From a phage: DNA of 64,000 nt. Below are positions 30,455 through 35,938 of the stretch, piece by piece. The notes below the pieces were generated by a model. The model searched no databases and was not told the origin of the DNA. It saw only the letters and a program-made list of their open reading frames with translations. The stretch lies in assembly GCA_018175275.1 (NCBI GenBank), contig GCA_018175275.1_4531.1. One strand, written 5' to 3'. Position numbers and translations under genes: made by a program. Numbering within the stretch: the stretch's first letter is position 1; each line of letters opens with the position of its first letter.

Positions 30455-31194
30455 TCATACATAGAGAAATTACTGTTAAAAGCGATCAAGATCTTTTTAT
30501 AATTGGAGATCTACACGGTTGTTATAATTTGTATGAAAAAGGAAAGGCAAAGTTAGGTATCCGAGATACAGATGTAGTTGTATCTTTAGGAGATCTTACT
30601 GACCGTGGAAAGCAAAACTTTCGTTGTGTTTTAGAATTTACTCGTAAACACAACCGCTACGCTATTCGTGGAAATCATGAAGACATGATGATTAAAGGTA
30701 TGCTGGAAGGAGATCGTAGCTACTTCGAGTGTTGGTATCAAAATGGAGGATATACAGTCCTTGAAGAATGTGGTGAAGAAGGAGCTACAGCCTTAGCAAT
30801 GATGACAGAAGATTTACCTGTTGTTCTCATTGTTAACTACAGAGGCATGAAACTTGCGTTTATTCATGGTGGGTATCCATCTTCTTTGGAATATCTCCCT
30901 GTAACAGATATTCCAGAATACACTTTGAAGATGACAAAAACACAGGAAAACCGTTTTGCTGAAGCACTTATGTGGGACAGAGATATGGTGGACTGTGCTA
31001 AAGAGGGAATGAAACTTCCTGTTGTGATGGGTGTGGACTATGTGTTTCATGGACACTCTTATGTAAAAACACCTATTATCAATGCGAATCGTGTTTATAT
31101 GGATACTGGATCTGTGTTCAATAATAACTTAACATTTGCTTATTTCGATATGGACGGTGGTCTTCAATTTTATTCAACTCTTGAGGAGGATTAA
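30451..31194 (+). CDS. PPP-family Ser/Thr protein phosphatase (lambda PPase / ApaH-like)
   Basis: GDLHG, GDLTDRG and GNHE motifs in order; GTG start after GAGGAGGA. Confidence 0.75.
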   Translation: MIIHREITVKSDQDLFIIGDLHGCYNLYEKGKAKLGIRDTDVVVSLGDLTDRGKQNFRCVLEFTRKHNRYAIRGNHEDMMIKGMLEGDRSYFECWYQNGGYTVLEECGEEGATALAMMTEDLPVVLIVNYRGMKLAFIHGGYPSSLEYLPVTDIPEYTLKMTKTQENRFAEALMWDRDMVDCAKEGMKLPVVMGVDYVFHGHSYVKTPIINANRVYMDTGSVFNNNLTFAYFDMDGGLQFYSTLEED

Positions 31195-31505
31195 TGTATA
31201 AGATTACAATTATTCAAAGTGTAGGTAATATCCGTAAAGAAGTTATCTTAGAAACAGAAGATGTTAATCTTGTTCGTGAGATTGTTTTTAAGGAAGATGA
31301 CCTGCAAGCTGTAGAATCGGATGCACCGAATCTTATGGTGGATCAAGAATATTCTGAACTTCGTCGTATTTTTGAAGAGATTCAGAAGAAAGAAACACAA
31401 CCTACCATAAAACCTTTTGGTCCTTATGATCCGAGCAATCCTAGCAGTCCTTGGATCATGAGAAATACGGAACCCTATTATGCACCTTTTGAAATTACTT
31501 GCTGA
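31194..31505 (+). CDS. hypothetical protein
   Basis: 103-aa ORF; GAGGAGGA upstream. Confidence 0.55.
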   Translation: MYKITIIQSVGNIRKEVILETEDVNLVREIVFKEDDLQAVESDAPNLMVDQEYSELRRIFEEIQKKETQPTIKPFGPYDPSNPSSPWIMRNTEPYYAPFEITC

Positions 31506-31512
31506 GGTGTTT

Positions 31513-32094
31513 ATGGCAGAATTGTTTTATACGGGAGTTGGAAGTAGAGACATCTCCAAAGAAGAGTGGGCTTTGATGGTAGGCATAGGGAAATGGCTTT
31601 CCAACCTTGGATTTAAATTAAGGTCTGGGAAGGCAGAGGGTAGTGATTCTGCTTTTGAAACAGGTGTCCAAGAGTCTGAAAATCCTAGCAACAAGGAGAT
31701 TTATGTACCTTGGGAAAATTTCAAAGGTAATCAGATTCCAGGTGATGTTATTGTTCTTGCAAAACCAGATACAATGAACTATGCTATCTCTGTGCAATGG
31801 ATCAAAGATGTTCACCCAGCTTATGAAAAGCTTAAGCAGGGCGCTAGAAAATTGCACCAACGTAATGTGCATCAGGTGTTAGGTAAAGATTTGGAGAATC
31901 CTGCTCCATCATGTTTCTTGTTGGCTTGTGCCGATACTGATAAACATGGAGATGCAAAAGGTGGAACAGCTACGGCTTGGAAGATAGCTAAAGCCAATAA
32001 TGTTCCTTGTTTAAACATTCGTGGGAAAACAAAACAAGAGATTTACGATTTTCTACGACCTTTGGTAATGAGGGCAATAACAAGTGATTCCTAA
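31513..32094 (+). CDS. DprA/Smf-like Rossmann-fold (SLOG-type) protein
   Basis: GVGSRDIS, SGKAEGSD, QRN and GGTATA segments in DprA-like order; internal ATG of track ORF 31480..32094. Confidence 0.45.
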   Translation: MAELFYTGVGSRDISKEEWALMVGIGKWLSNLGFKLRSGKAEGSDSAFETGVQESENPSNKEIYVPWENFKGNQIPGDVIVLAKPDTMNYAISVQWIKDVHPAYEKLKQGARKLHQRNVHQVLGKDLENPAPSCFLLACADTDKHGDAKGGTATAWKIAKANNVPCLNIRGKTKQEIYDFLRPLVMRAITSDS

Positions 32095-32596
32095 ACGTAA
32101 ACGTGGTGAACAAAGAACAAACTTGGCAGAAATCTTAGATTACAACATGGTTAATGATGTGACAAAAGAAATTCTGCCTGTTGTAGAAGATATTCTTCAA
32201 AGAGGGTTACGATTCTGCTCGGATCGGGTGCATTTCATGTGGACACATAAAAGTGACTCCGCTTTGAATTTCTATCCTTTGGACTATACTCTGAACAATA
32301 CGGAGATGAAAGATATCAACAAATACTTAATGGGATATAAAGATATAACAGAAACTGTTCTTGGAGAATTGGCAGAAATCTTGGCTAACGATATCCTTAG
32401 AAATATTAATAAGGCTCTTGACAGAAGCCCAGCAGGAGTAGTAGTATCTTTTGCTGTGCCAGATATGGTTAAATATGAGTCTACAATACCTAATAAAGCT
32501 TATGCCTTTCTTCGGAGAGACGTTCGTGGAAATGTGTTGGAGATGGAGTCAAACTACAAGATTGAGGAGGTTTTATGGCAGAGTTCGGATCAGTAA
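32084..32596 (+). CDS. hypothetical protein
   Basis: 170-aa ORF, GTG start. Confidence 0.5.
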   Translation: MIPKRKRGEQRTNLAEILDYNMVNDVTKEILPVVEDILQRGLRFCSDRVHFMWTHKSDSALNFYPLDYTLNNTEMKDINKYLMGYKDITETVLGELAEILANDILRNINKALDRSPAGVVVSFAVPDMVKYESTIPNKAYAFLRRDVRGNVLEMESNYKIEEVLWQSSDQ

Positions 32597-32865
32597 CAAG
32601 TTTTGAAAGTAACTTCGTTACCGCTTGGGAAGCTTGGGATGAAATGGGTGTTGGGGAACTTTATTTTTACAATGTAACACTACGTCCAGAGTATGCTTAC
32701 CTGGTACCAGAAGGAACAGTTCAAATTGGCATGTATTTGTCTTCTCAAGACGGTGTTGTTCAATTTGAGTTTTATTCTAACACAACGGACAACGAATTTA
32801 CATACCGCGCATTTCATGTCAACATGTCTTTAGGAGAGGAGAAATTTTATGACGACCAAGTTTAA
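32575..32865 (+). CDS. hypothetical protein
   Basis: 96-aa ORF; GGAGG upstream. Confidence 0.5.
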   Translation: MAEFGSVTSFESNFVTAWEAWDEMGVGELYFYNVTLRPEYAYLVPEGTVQIGMYLSSQDGVVQFEFYSNTTDNEFTYRAFHVNMSLGEEKFYDDQV

Positions 32866-33046
32866 AACAGTAGAAGAAGCCGTAAAAGCAGCTTATGATG
32901 CTTTAGCGGAAGCAGAGCAGTTAGCAGACGAGACTGGAGAAGGTTTCCATTTCTCCCCTGAATATGGGATGGGTGGTTATTATGATCCAGAAGATGAAAA
33001 TGAGAATACTGGGACAAATTGGCATCCATCTTCTTTAAGTTGTTAA
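32849..33046 (+). CDS. small acidic protein, W-x-(P)-S-S-(L)-S-C C-terminal family
   Basis: 65 aa ending NWHPSSLSC; GGAGAGGAG upstream. Confidence 0.5.
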   Translation: MTTKFKTVEEAVKAAYDALAEAEQLADETGEGFHFSPEYGMGGYYDPEDENENTGTNWHPSSLSC

Positions 33047-33057
33047 TAGGAGGTAAA

Positions 33058-33333
33058 GTGGGAATCGAAGATATCAAAGGTTATAAGGCGCATACTGACG
33101 ATAAGATTGGCAAGGTTAACGCTATTAAAGATGCAGAAGAGCGTTTAGGTTTAATCTTCAAAGCTTTAGAGGAAGAGTATTGTGAAGCATATCATGGGTC
33201 TTTTGACGGCACAGAAAAAGAATTAGATGTTGCATACGAGCGTATTGATCAAATCCGTTGTGCTATTAAACATTTAAAAGAAGCTAGTATGTGGGCTTGT
33301 CGTTCAGTTTTCCAACCGGAGGAGAAATACTAA
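33058..33333 (+). CDS. hypothetical protein
   Basis: GTG start after TAGGAGGT inside track ORF 33019..33333. Confidence 0.45.
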   Translation: MGIEDIKGYKAHTDDKIGKVNAIKDAEERLGLIFKALEEEYCEAYHGSFDGTEKELDVAYERIDQIRCAIKHLKEASMWACRSVFQPEEKY

Positions 33334-33551
33334 TGAGTGATCGTAATGTTGAAGAATTAACTGAAAAAGCCCAAGCTATTATGGCTTTAGTGGACGAACT
33401 TACAAAAGAAGCTGAAGATGCTGGTTTTGGTCTTAGTTTAGAAGATAACGCAATCTGTTTTGAAGATTGGCAATCCTCTTCTTGTTATGGTGAAGGTGAT
33501 GATGGTTTTGTCGTTAATTCTCAAGGTGTTTGGCATAGTAGTAGCTGTTAA
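33333..33551 (+). CDS. small acidic protein, W-x-S-S-S-C C-terminal family
   Basis: 72 aa ending GVWHSSSC (also internal DWQSSSC); GGAGGAGAAA upstream. Confidence 0.5.
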   Translation: MSDRNVEELTEKAQAIMALVDELTKEAEDAGFGLSLEDNAICFEDWQSSSCYGEGDDGFVVNSQGVWHSSSC

Positions 33552-33560
33552 GGAGAGATT

Positions 33561-33833
33561 GTGGAGTCTGAAGGCGAACTGCTGATAAAAAAGAAAGTTA
33601 AAGAGATGGAACAAGCACAGAGAAAGTTTCGTAAGGAAATTGAAGAACTTTGTGAACAGTTTCAGGAACAAGCTTGGATAGGTGACTACGGCAACGGAGA
33701 AACTTATTACCCTACAGGAACGCCAGCCGCAGATCACTATATTGATTTCATTTGTGAAGATTATGGTGTAGAGTTGGATGAAAATGGTTTAACCACAAGA
33801 GGTGTTTGGATCTCTTCTTCCTCAATGTGTTAG
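33561..33833 (+). CDS. small acidic protein, W-x-S-S-S-x-C C-terminal family
   Basis: 90 aa ending GVWISSSSMC; GTG start after AAGGAGAG. Confidence 0.5.
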   Translation: MESEGELLIKKKVKEMEQAQRKFRKEIEELCEQFQEQAWIGDYGNGETYYPTGTPAADHYIDFICEDYGVELDENGLTTRGVWISSSSMC

Positions 33834-33841
33834 TAAATAAT

Positions 33842-33865
33842 AACCCGCTTCGGCGGGTTTTTTAT
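33842..33865 (+). terminator. rho-independent terminator
   Basis: ACCCGC-TTCG-GCGGGT followed by TTTTTT. Confidence 0.6.
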
Positions 33866-33893
33866 TGACAGGAATCTGGAAGCTTGATAAACT
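33865..33893 (+). promoter_or_regulatory. sigma70-type promoter
   Basis: TTGACA-17 bp-TAAACT immediately after terminator. Confidence 0.5.
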
Positions 33894-33923: not shown

Positions 33924-34865
33924 ATGGTGTTAATTGGTAGCCGTGCATTACAAATTCATGCTATGGACATGGGAAAAGACTTGTATCGCCCTTGTGTAGA
34001 TTTAGATTATCTCTGTACAGAACAAGAGTGGGAAGAATTATCAAAAATGTTCTCTCAAGACGAGTTTGTTGAACTTGTAGAACGTAAAGGGAACAAAGGC
34101 CATGTCAAAATGATAGCTGGTGCACATTTGGAATACGATATTGCTTCTCAAGGAGATAGCACAGAAGCTTTGATTAGTTATTGTGAAGATTCTGATGATG
34201 TTCGTCGAACTTACGCTGGACATGTTGTTGCTCCTTTAGATGTGCTCTACCTTCTTAAAATGAGTCATCGTTTTAAAAAGGATAGTCCTCACTTCTTTAA
34301 AACTATGAAAGATATTCATTTCATGCGGTCACTGGGCGCAAAGATCCCAGAAAATCTTAAGAGTATTTATGAGTTGCGTGAGAAAGAAACATACACTTAC
34401 TCTCATCCGAACTTAAACGTAAAAAGTAAAGAGTTCTTTAAAGGTGACGAGGTTCCGTATGTTTATGATCATGATTCTATCCATGAAGCAATCGCGTTAA
34501 TGGATGCTCCAGCATATAAATCTTATATGAAAGATGGAAGTGAAGTTATGACCAGCAAAGAAAAGTTTTTTGCTCAACCAAAACATGTGCGGCTGTTAGG
34601 TGTTTATGAAGAAGCGTGTGTTTTGGCTTTGGAACGTTCACAAATTCCTTTCGGTGAAGAGATCGGAGGTCCAACCCCTAAGCAAAGTTTTATAATGGCT
34701 TTATCTAAAGTCTGCACATCCATCACTAGTGGTTGGTTTAGGGAATATGCTTGGGAAAACTTTTATGTTGTTATTAAGCTATATGAAAACATGGGCGAAA
34801 ACGACTATGTTGAACGTTTTAAAGCTAATCAACATGTAGTAAAGCCTTTTGAAGGAGGTTATTAA
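33924..34865 (+). CDS. hypothetical protein with possible minimal nucleotidyltransferase motif
   Basis: 313 aa; N-terminal GS...DLD arrangement; GAGGAGAAA upstream. Confidence 0.55.
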   Translation: MVLIGSRALQIHAMDMGKDLYRPCVDLDYLCTEQEWEELSKMFSQDEFVELVERKGNKGHVKMIAGAHLEYDIASQGDSTEALISYCEDSDDVRRTYAGHVVAPLDVLYLLKMSHRFKKDSPHFFKTMKDIHFMRSLGAKIPENLKSIYELREKETYTYSHPNLNVKSKEFFKGDEVPYVYDHDSIHEAIALMDAPAYKSYMKDGSEVMTSKEKFFAQPKHVRLLGVYEEACVLALERSQIPFGEEIGGPTPKQSFIMALSKVCTSITSGWFREYAWENFYVVIKLYENMGENDYVERFKANQHVVKPFEGGY

Positions 34866-34866
34866 T

Positions 34867-35262
34867 ATGTGTGGATATCTTTCAGAAAGTTATTTCAAAG
34901 TGACGCATGAGGATTTAGAAAAAGCACGATTGAAACTGACAGCTATTATTGAATACTCTAATACTGTTGAACACAGATTAAAGACTACTAAAGTATCTGT
35001 TCCTTGTTGGTTAGGTTTACGGCATAAAATAATGTCTCAACATGACCATGTTGTTCGAGAGATGCATGGTTGGTGTTGGTTTCACGATGTGGCTCTGCAT
35101 TTTGGTTATATTACAGAAGAAGAGCATAGATTCTGTGAACTAACATATCGTATTCCAACCCTTCACGATTTAGATTTGTGGAAGAAAGCAAACGAGATTT
35201 TTCTTACAGAAAGTGATTGGCGTAAAGTTATGGCTTGTCTTGAATGGAGGGGTAATGAGTAA
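34867..35262 (+). CDS. hypothetical protein
   Basis: Internal ATG of track ORF 34849..35262 with GGAGG 8 nt upstream. Confidence 0.5.
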   Translation: MCGYLSESYFKVTHEDLEKARLKLTAIIEYSNTVEHRLKTTKVSVPCWLGLRHKIMSQHDHVVREMHGWCWFHDVALHFGYITEEEHRFCELTYRIPTLHDLDLWKKANEIFLTESDWRKVMACLEWRGNE

Positions 35263-35938
35263 AACAGTTTTGTCTATGTTTGACGGATCTGGGATCATGG
35301 TGTTACGTTATGCCGAAGCAGGTCACAAGTGTTTTTGTGTAAACGCTGATGAAGGGGATCACGGTAAATACGAGGTTAGGATGGAGCACCCAAACATAAC
35401 CTATGTGAATGCTTGGATAGATTCTACATTCAACCCTGAAGATCATGGGATACCTAAACCCGATATTATTTTTGGATTTCCACCTTGCACTATGTTAGCA
35501 GGTAGTGGTAGCAAACACGAACGCAGCACAGAGGAATTGGATGAAGCTTTAGCTAATATTCGTGTAGTGGAAGCTTTGGGTAACAAATATAATGTTCCTT
35601 GGATGATTGAGAACCCAGTAGGTAAACTTTCAACCTTATGGCGTAAACCCGATTTTTACTTTGATCCTTATGAGTATGGTGGGTATTTGTTTGAAGAGGA
35701 AGGAAGCTTTCATCCTAAAATGCCTACCCGTGATGGGTATACAAAGAAAACTTGTATTTGGCACGGCAATGGTTTTGTTCAACCAGTGAAGAAACCAGTA
35801 GATCATATAGGCTGCTTCTGGGGTTGGAAAAGCTTAGGTGGAGCTAGTGCAAAAACAAAACAACTTAGATCCCTAACCGCACGTGGTTTTGCTCGTGCCG
35901 TGTTTTTGTCTAACAATCTTCTAGATAAGGAGAAATAA
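35255..35938 (+). CDS. C5-pyrimidine methyltransferase-like protein (compact, no obvious TRD)
   Basis: FDGSG (motif I-like), GFPPCT (PCQ-like with Cys), ENPVG (ENV-like); internal ATG of track ORF 35213..35938. Confidence 0.5.
   Translation: MSKTVLSMFDGSGIMVLRYAEAGHKCFCVNADEGDHGKYEVRMEHPNITYVNAWIDSTFNPEDHGIPKPDIIFGFPPCTMLAGSGSKHERSTEELDEALANIRVVEALGNKYNVPWMIENPVGKLSTLWRKPDFYFDPYEYGGYLFEEEGSFHPKMPTRDGYTKKTCIWHGNGFVQPVKKPVDHIGCFWGWKSLGGASAKTKQLRSLTARGFARAVFLSNNLLDKEK

Follow-up and report, generated by a model that had tools for sequence, protein, structure and literature searches.

Why do several small phage proteins, with bodies that differ widely, end in nearly the same few residues? This question is raised by a stretch of 64,000 nucleotides from a phage (NCBI GenBank assembly GCA_018175275.1, contig GCA_018175275.1_4531.1; hereafter the window), to which Phapecoctavirus genomes (phAPEC8-like Escherichia coli myoviruses of ~150 kb, e.g. 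vB_EcoM_Schickermooser) are 98-99% identical. Three open reading frames (ORFs) of the window, denoted A, B, and C, encode small acidic proteins that end with NWHPSSLSC, GVWHSSSC, and GVWISSSSMC, respectively. We refer to the shared end, a Trp followed by serines and a Cys, as the tail. We found that the tail is a portable, nearly invariant C-terminal motif carried by diverse small acidic bodies. We also found that it is tightly linked to the gene of a phage-restricted nucleotidyltransferase (NTase) whose fold resembles that of MenT and whose catalytic motif is intact.

A conserved C-terminal tail on diverse small proteins

As a preliminary description of the locus had stated, the three ORFs and a further internal copy of the motif in B (DWQSSSC) are present, and the proteins are acidic. 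The ORFs lie on the + strand, and the isoelectric point (pI) of the proteins is 4.05-4.4. The tandem order given in that description had to be revised, since a homolog of Acb2/Vs.4 separates A from B. The start of gene B overlaps the stop of the Acb2 ORF (TAATG), and the GTG start of gene C is preceded by AAGGAG. When membership in the tail superfamily was defined by the pattern W-x-[SPAT]-S-S-x(0-2)-C located 0-4 residues from the stop, A and C carried the canonical tail, while B carried a short variant plus the internal copy, which is also present in the homolog P0186. Chance origin of the three window tails is excluded: nucleotide shuffles of the window gave on average 0.07 C-terminal matches compared with the 3 observed, and residue shuffles of the 336 window ORFs of at least 60 amino acids yielded a match in 0 of 2000 trials.

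To place the proteins in a family, we compared them with profile libraries. All three matched PHROG 899 (A, E=3.4e-13; B, E=9.5e-6; C, E=5.1e-14), in each case at the C-terminal end of the profile, while Pfam, NCBIfam, and PADLOC gave nothing significant for any of them. A search of 1.84 billion cluster representatives with a family profile (E<=1e-3) recovered 396 proteins or clusters at 50% identity; the corresponding hidden Markov model (HMM) scored A at E=7e-23. Tail statistics were taken on the best 149 of the 396, which are pairwise at most 50% identical. The C-terminal residue was Cys in 143 of these 149 representatives, and the exact C-terminal pattern W-x-[SPAT]-S-S-x-x-C was found in 137. 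W(-7), S(-4), S(-3), and C(0) were all kept in 138, though the bodies diverge to <30% identity. The representatives contain a median of one Cys, usually the terminal one alone, and have a median pI of 4.45. The tail is thus neither unenriched among homologs nor truncated in close relatives; no other feature of the family is as strongly conserved, and the tail is kept in close and distant homologs alike.

The tails fall into three subfamilies that are kept across phage genera: an A-type (W.PSS..C), a B-type (DG.[IV]W..SSC), and a C-type (G.W.SSS.MC). The A homologs P0012-P0019 retain W.PSS..C, and B orthologs ending with W..SSC are present in 26 loci. In Mosigvirus, orthologs annotated as similar to RB69ORF136c-139c, hypothetical proteins of T4-like phages, form the same three-gene array, followed by an NTase gene of the RB69ORF134c type. 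PHROG 899 itself is a cluster label without a function, and in the libraries and papers that we searched we found no record of the tail motif or of a link to the NTase.

The conservation acts at the protein level, as had been proposed from the different serine codons in the tails of A, B, and C (TCT/TCC/TCA and AGT/AGC). Among 151 distinct tails from the fetched loci, both invariant Ser positions draw on all six codons, with AGY accounting for 24-31%. This codon use indicates selection on the protein rather than on a DNA or RNA element, and it rules out a nucleotide-level element as the cause of the conservation.

We then analyzed the bodies to which the tail is attached. The same tail closes bodies of 52-190 amino acids, some of which (139-190 and 52-60 amino acids) are undetected by the family HMM. 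Degenerate internal copies of the form W-x-[SDN]-S were found within bodies, including acidic linkers, 41 times compared with 2.1 +/- 1.4 in shuffled sequences (~20-fold enrichment). In a 15-sequence alignment, the invariant columns were the glycines of YGxG, the Trp, two Ser, and the terminal Cys. The AlphaFold2 model of C built from this alignment (predicted local distance difference test, pLDDT, 93.7) contains a helix at residues 4-34, a hairpin around YGNG, a short helix, a strand at 82-85 (V-W-I-S), and a turn at S86-S88 just before M-C. The superfamily, which is large and phage-restricted, can be described by an N-terminal amphipathic helix, a small beta-sheet often with a YG(M)GG hairpin, and the invariant C-terminal tail W-x-[S/P/A]-S-S-x-x-C. 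No similar fold was found for A, B, or C, and a sequence search of solved structures (PDB) with C returned only noise, e.g. a peroxiredoxin at E~0.04.

According to the model, the tail is in part structural. One explanation for its conservation is that it is mainly so: the Trp would close the hydrophobic core, the serines would cap the terminal turn, the Cys thiolate, with or without the carboxylate, would bridge a metal or form an intermolecular disulfide or oligomer, and no enzyme would act on the tail. The confident placement of the strand and the helical turn within the domain fits this explanation, as do the conservation of the YGxG hairpin along with the tail in most members and the single Cys per chain, which would suit a site shared between subunits. 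However, the tail is unchanged in paralogs that have lost the YGMGG hairpin and in members with unrelated N-terminal bodies, and degenerate copies occur inside disordered-looking acidic linkers and in B. The variable spacing between the serines and the Cys speaks against a fixed metal geometry, and a purely structural cap leaves the synteny with the NTase gene, presented below, unexplained. We regard a mainly structural role as quite unlikely. The preliminary description, in which the NTase does not figure, had opposed a recognition or modification tag to a structural element. The first is favored by the occurrence of the tail on different bodies, the enrichment of internal copies, and the linkage to the NTase, but the Trp modelled in a beta-strand of the folded domain means that the tail would serve the second in part. 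Acylation and recognition by a protease or a chaperone, which had also been suggested, found no support.

Larger tail proteins, of 139-170 amino acids, that the HMM missed are encoded in L020 (2469-3332), L026 (1766-2682), and L027 (1953-3313), where L denotes a retrieved locus, and end with HAWCSSSMIC, VDWDSSSMYC, and ENSDWNSSRC. One conserved type among the larger proteins, of 144 amino acids, ends with GWISSSICW, one residue past the Cys.

Linkage of the tail genes to a nucleotidyltransferase gene

Gene C ends at position 33833, and the NTase gene follows on the same strand from position 33924. Among the loci retrieved with tail proteins, the NTase gene was located downstream on the same strand in 12 out of 12, from Phapecoctavirus and several T4-like lineages. 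The same order was found in distant metagenomic contigs (L013-L018 and L108), and every tail-retrieved locus long enough to judge shows the tail genes upstream of the NTase gene. For the reverse search, we retrieved 80 IMG/VR loci with the NTase and identified tail ORFs within 2.5 kb upstream by a regular expression, followed by inspection. The regular expression detected 1-6 tail ORFs on the same strand in 72 of the 80 loci, and inspection added L057, L096, and L098, giving ~75 out of 80 (~94%). All 151 tails lie on the strand of the NTase gene. The arrangement was also found in Pseudomonas phage phiPsa374, with five copies, and Acinetobacter phage Lazarus, with 2-3 copies.

We characterized the partner NTase by its predicted structure and conserved residues. 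The protein shows the fold of MenT-type Pol-beta NTases, and its top structural relatives (match figures in parentheses) were MenT1 (11.9), TglT (10.4), ANT(2'') (9.8), a giant-virus poly(A) polymerase (9.7), MenT4 (9.2), and LnuA (9.2). Its invariant residues include the canonical G5-S6, D26-x-D28, and E70, together with K112. The conserved helical C-terminal domain is rich in His, Asp, and Glu (H115, H161, H183-D184, H187, E229/E230, and the segment CTSITSGWFRE). Judged by modelled fold and motif, the partner is a canonical NTase. Structural relatives transfer nucleoside monophosphates (NMPs) to hydroxyls, either the tRNA 3'-OH in the case of MenT toxins or drug hydroxyls in the case of ANT(2'') and LnuA (PMC10435456).

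Sequence searches with the partner gave only DUF7275 and DUF7277 in Pfam, and not DUF1814/AbiEii; NCBIfam and PADLOC gave nothing significant, and a profile search of the PDB gave no match. The partner is present in 735 of 50,697 deposited phage genomes. We considered a bacterial, toxin-antitoxin-like home for the enzyme and rejected it: just 5 matches were found in 185,579 species genomes, all of them metagenome-assembled genomes (MAGs). We also rejected the possibility that DUF7275 is a divergent RlaP, an enzyme that adds 1-2 NMPs to damaged RNA 3' ends (PMC12776372), since an hhalign comparison with the RlaP protein of L104 gave a probability of 0.2%. In L104 (94-1352), the tail protein P0157, which ends with EGFWYSSSMSC, is encoded directly after the RlaP gene (PF10127, E=4e-14), with overlapping start and stop. 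An RlaP-like ORF is also located upstream of the tail array in L091 (1289-2197).

Table 1 Features of the tail-NTase locus in the window and of DUF7275 homologs in actinophages.
Feature	Position	Strand	Description
Tail protein A	32849..33046	+	65 amino acids, pI 4.1; ends NWHPSSLSC; subfamily W-x-P-S-S-x-x-C; from ORF and translation
Tail motif of A	33020..33043	+	W H P S S L S C
Acb2/Vs.4 homolog (cyclic-nucleotide sponge)	33058..33333	+	91 amino acids, GTG start; outside the conserved module
Tail protein B	33333..33551	+	72 amino acids, pI 4.05; short-tail subfamily DG.[IV]W..SSC; ends GVWHSSSC
Internal motif copy in B	33468..33485	+	W Q S S S C (DWQSSSC)
Tail motif of B	33531..33548	+	W H S S S C
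Tail protein C	33561..33833	+	90 amino acids, pI 4.4; ends GVWISSSSMC; subfamily G.W.SSS.MC
Tail motif of C	33807..33830	+	W I S S S S M C
Intrinsic-terminator-like hairpin (33842-33859) plus T-run	33842..33867	+	closes the tail array; site annotated as terminator in Schickermooser
Sigma-70-like promoter	33865..33893	+	TTGACA-17-TAAACT, TG extended -10; ahead of the NTase gene; consensus match only
Partner NTase (DUF7277+DUF7275)	33924..34865	+	313 amino acids; MenT/AbiEii-fold Pol-beta NTase; His-rich helical C-terminal domain
DUF7275 homolog, Streptomyces phage Wakanda	L111, 3854-4600		Wakanda and Abscondus homologs: near polynucleotide kinase and RNA ligase genes, or adjoining a tRNA cluster
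DUF7275 homolog, Gordonia phage Abscondus	L112, 3663-4454		see Wakanda

A possible role of the tail at the acceptor site

What could the tail do next to such an enzyme? We suggest, with a probability of roughly 40%, that the tail engages the acceptor site of the NTase as an acceptor or a pseudo-substrate, and that A, B, and C act together with the downstream enzyme. We count in support of this the conservation and modularity of the tail, the synteny with the NTase gene, the hydroxyl-directed relatives of the NTase, and the precedent of MenA1-MenT1. The contact between tail and NTase, the covalent modification, and the biological purpose, which in this early gene region could be host takeover or counter-defence, are what we infer from these observations.

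The invariant residues of the tail comprise an aromatic anchor and three nucleophiles. The constant tail would be the element that enters the acceptor site, while the variable acidic bodies may give each paralog its own identity, in terms of target, timing, or nucleic-acid mimicry. The Trp could act as the anchor, possibly substituting for a stacked base. The hydroxyls of the two invariant Ser could act as acceptor or pseudo-acceptor, replacing the RNA 3'-OH or the small-molecule hydroxyl used by the structural relatives, and the near-terminal Cys with its carboxylate may provide an extra ligand. Two outcomes can be envisaged. O-nucleotidylylation of the tail is a tentative proposal, and we prefer it slightly over the second, in which the tail would occlude or redirect an RNA-directed NTase as a pseudo-substrate and which we hold to be improbable as a specific outcome. 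A broader version is unlikely but has wider consequences: the tail would be a portable, genetically encoded tag of a phage post-translational system. The MenT-fold NTase would load nucleotides onto the tail Ser/Cys of up to six acidic effectors per phage, or prime oligonucleotides there, and the resulting protein-nucleotide conjugates could serve host takeover or counter-defence, e.g. as tRNA-end mimics or traps.

Comparison with known systems places the module near two families of NTases with small partners. MenT toxins extend tRNA 3' ends by nucleotides, and MenT1 is blocked by MenA1, a protein of 68 amino acids with a long helix that is encoded directly upstream; MenA1 binds the active-site face of MenT1, and its C-terminus is disordered and dispensable (PMC10435456). 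As in the MenA1-MenT1 pair (Rv0078B-Rv0078A) of Mycobacterium tuberculosis, the gene of a small helical protein here lies upstream of a MenT-type NTase gene. Unlike MenA1, however, the tail proteins have the C-terminus as their invariant feature, they occur as 1-6 diverse paralogs per genome, and they are phage-restricted. The partner NTase has DxD where MenT has S/TxD. Homology of the tail proteins to MenA1 was found neither in sequence nor in structure, and no MenA1 chain was among the PDB sequence matches of C at E<=10.

In MntA-HepT (MNT-HEPN, a type VII toxin-antitoxin system) and in GlnD/GlnE, an NTase of the Pol-beta fold covalently attaches an NMP to a hydroxyl in a side chain of its partner protein, located in HepT near the C-terminus. 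These systems may be regarded as the closest functional analogue of an acceptor role. Their acceptors differ, being a Tyr of a folded toxin or of PII or glutamine synthetase; each enzyme there has a single substrate, and a portable terminal W-x-S-S-S-x-x-C tag is absent. The top structural matches of the partner did not include minimal MNT or GlnE-type enzymes. The module can therefore be described as a variant of NTase-plus-small-partner modules that belongs to neither the MenA1-MenT1 nor the MntA-HepT family, because its sequence and the role of its C-terminus do not fit either.

The layout also recalls the precursors of ribosomally synthesized and post-translationally modified peptides (RiPPs). 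Lanthipeptide and aminovinyl-cysteine (AviCys) precursors such as that of epidermin are likewise encoded by several copies of a small gene beside an enzyme gene, and they end with a Cys that has a Ser at position -3; in epidermin, these two residues are linked in the AviCys ring. The paralogs could by analogy be precursor or scaffold peptides whose C-terminal Ser and Cys are converted into a lanthionine or AviCys-type ring, or undergo terminal-Cys chemistry, after the downstream enzyme activates the Ser by nucleotidylylation or phosphorylation. Tandem small genes followed by one conserved enzyme gene are the classic RiPP layout, the tail has invariant Ser at -3 and -4 from the Cys, and B has a match to the class IV lanthipeptide model NF038148. 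That match (E=0.11, 12.4 bits, below the cutoff of 25) is not significant, though, and no dehydratase, cyclase, HFCD decarboxylase, radical SAM, protease, or exporter family was found in the annotated Schickermooser region or among the Pfam calls of genes that adjoin the array in L013-L018 and L108. Structure prediction gives folded domains for the bodies rather than a leader plus core, the tail also closes proteins of 140-190 amino acids, and the setting is a lytic phage. A RiPP-like pathway is very improbable.

Several observations weigh against an acceptor role. In the AlphaFold2 model, the Trp is part of a beta-strand of the fold and the tail is predicted with high confidence, which fits a structural role and may limit the accessibility of the tail. 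The spacing between the serines and the Cys varies by 0-2 residues and a few members have 1-4 residues beyond the Cys, so that neither an exact geometry nor a free Cys carboxylate is obligatory. No protein-modifying enzyme was found among the top structural neighbours of the partner, whose nearest relatives act on RNA or small molecules. Five NTase loci (one phage type, L023/24/25/31, plus L076) have no tail gene within 4 kb, and their NTases retain nearly all conserved residues (all of them in L076). This indicates that the NTase is not strictly dependent on a neighbouring tail protein; the residues that are lost in these NTases showed no clear pattern that would hint at a binding patch. One tail gene follows a different NTase, RlaP. 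The actinophage homologs of DUF7275, which align only to NTase residues ~100-300, have no tail genes nearby and lie near polynucleotide kinase, RNA ligase, or tRNA genes (Table 1), which suggests an RNA substrate or RNA-end function for this domain. In the window, terminator-like and promoter-like sites separate the array from the NTase gene, and from these sites the two may be separately transcribed in this phage.

Some of these observations would be expected if the tail were a short linear motif for a host protein, independent of the phage NTase. The tail proteins could then inhibit host enzymes or defence effectors or act as their decoys, and host MenT/AbiEii-type toxins could be among the targets; the linkage would reflect a common pathway or an accessory island. 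Besides the NTase loci without tail genes and the terminator and promoter between array and NTase gene, this explanation draws on the nature of the proteins, which are small, very acidic, rapidly diversifying, and multi-paralog in an early or accessory region, as is typical of phage counter-defence. It also draws on the Acb2 sponge gene inserted in the array of this phage and on the internal motif repeats, which suggest multivalent binding. The linkage itself is harder to reconcile with it: ~94% same-strand linkage across Phapecoctavirus, T4-like subfamilies, Otagovirus, jumbo-phage contigs, and unclassified metagenomic phages is far tighter than ordinary co-residence in an island, and other neighbours such as Acb2 are not conserved. 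We consider a host-directed motif rather doubtful, and continue to favor engagement of the acceptor site of the phage NTase.

Neighbouring genes, distribution, and significance

The ORF located between A and B matched Acb2_Tad1_hairpin (PF24729, E=1.3e-16) and the structure of T4 Vs.4 (7uq2, E=1.8e-28). Acb2 is a sponge that counters the cyclic-oligonucleotide-based antiphage signaling system (CBASS) and Thoeris. No Acb2 homolog was found in the 80 other NTase loci, and in L019, the nearest divergent relative (77% identical), A, B, and C are strictly adjacent without Acb2 between them. The gene is therefore a lineage-specific insertion into the array, which rules it out as a part of the tail-NTase module, and its presence identifies the locus as a hotspot for accessory or counter-defence genes. 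Acb2 and Tad1 sponges are, like the tail proteins, small phage proteins of the same early region; A, B, and C matched neither PF24729 nor the Vs.4 and other solved Acb2/Tad1 structures.

Other ORFs near the array were inspected. A 170-amino-acid ORF at 32084-32596 (+, PHROG 8569) ends with LWQSSDQ, resembling a degenerate internal motif, and was considered as a fourth tail; its homologs end otherwise, and we attribute the resemblance to coincidence. A few genes upstream of the array, a 103-amino-acid ORF at 31194-31505 (+) ends with PFEITC. Its homologs in L019-L022 end with PFEITC or PFTVTC, which makes them another small family in which a C-terminal Cys is conserved. The ORF at 35213-35938 (+), located two genes downstream of the NTase gene, has a start containing SMFDGSG, typical of cytosine-5 DNA methyltransferases, and is annotated in Schickermooser as 'DNA methyltransferase, Dcm', while Pfam gave no match for it at E<=0.1. 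A similar methyltransferase-like ORF follows the NTase gene in L023 (5272-5985), one of the loci without tail genes.

C-type tail proteins were found in 460 of the 50,697 deposited phage genomes. Hosts of phages with the system include Escherichia, Klebsiella, Acinetobacter, Pseudomonas, Aeromonas, and Vibrio. Neither a paper nor a curated family describing the tail, or the association of its genes with the NTase gene, came up in literature and library searches, and no function, solved structure, or literature was found for either component. The pair of tail and NTase genes points to an undescribed two-part phage system, for which the invariant tail offers a precise experimental handle. The partner shares the fold of the bacterial tRNA-modifying toxins of abortive infection and toxin-antitoxin systems (MenT/AbiEii), and from the module one could learn how such enzymes are regulated or repurposed by phages. 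An acceptor role of the tail, if correct, would represent a new type of protein nucleotidylylation.

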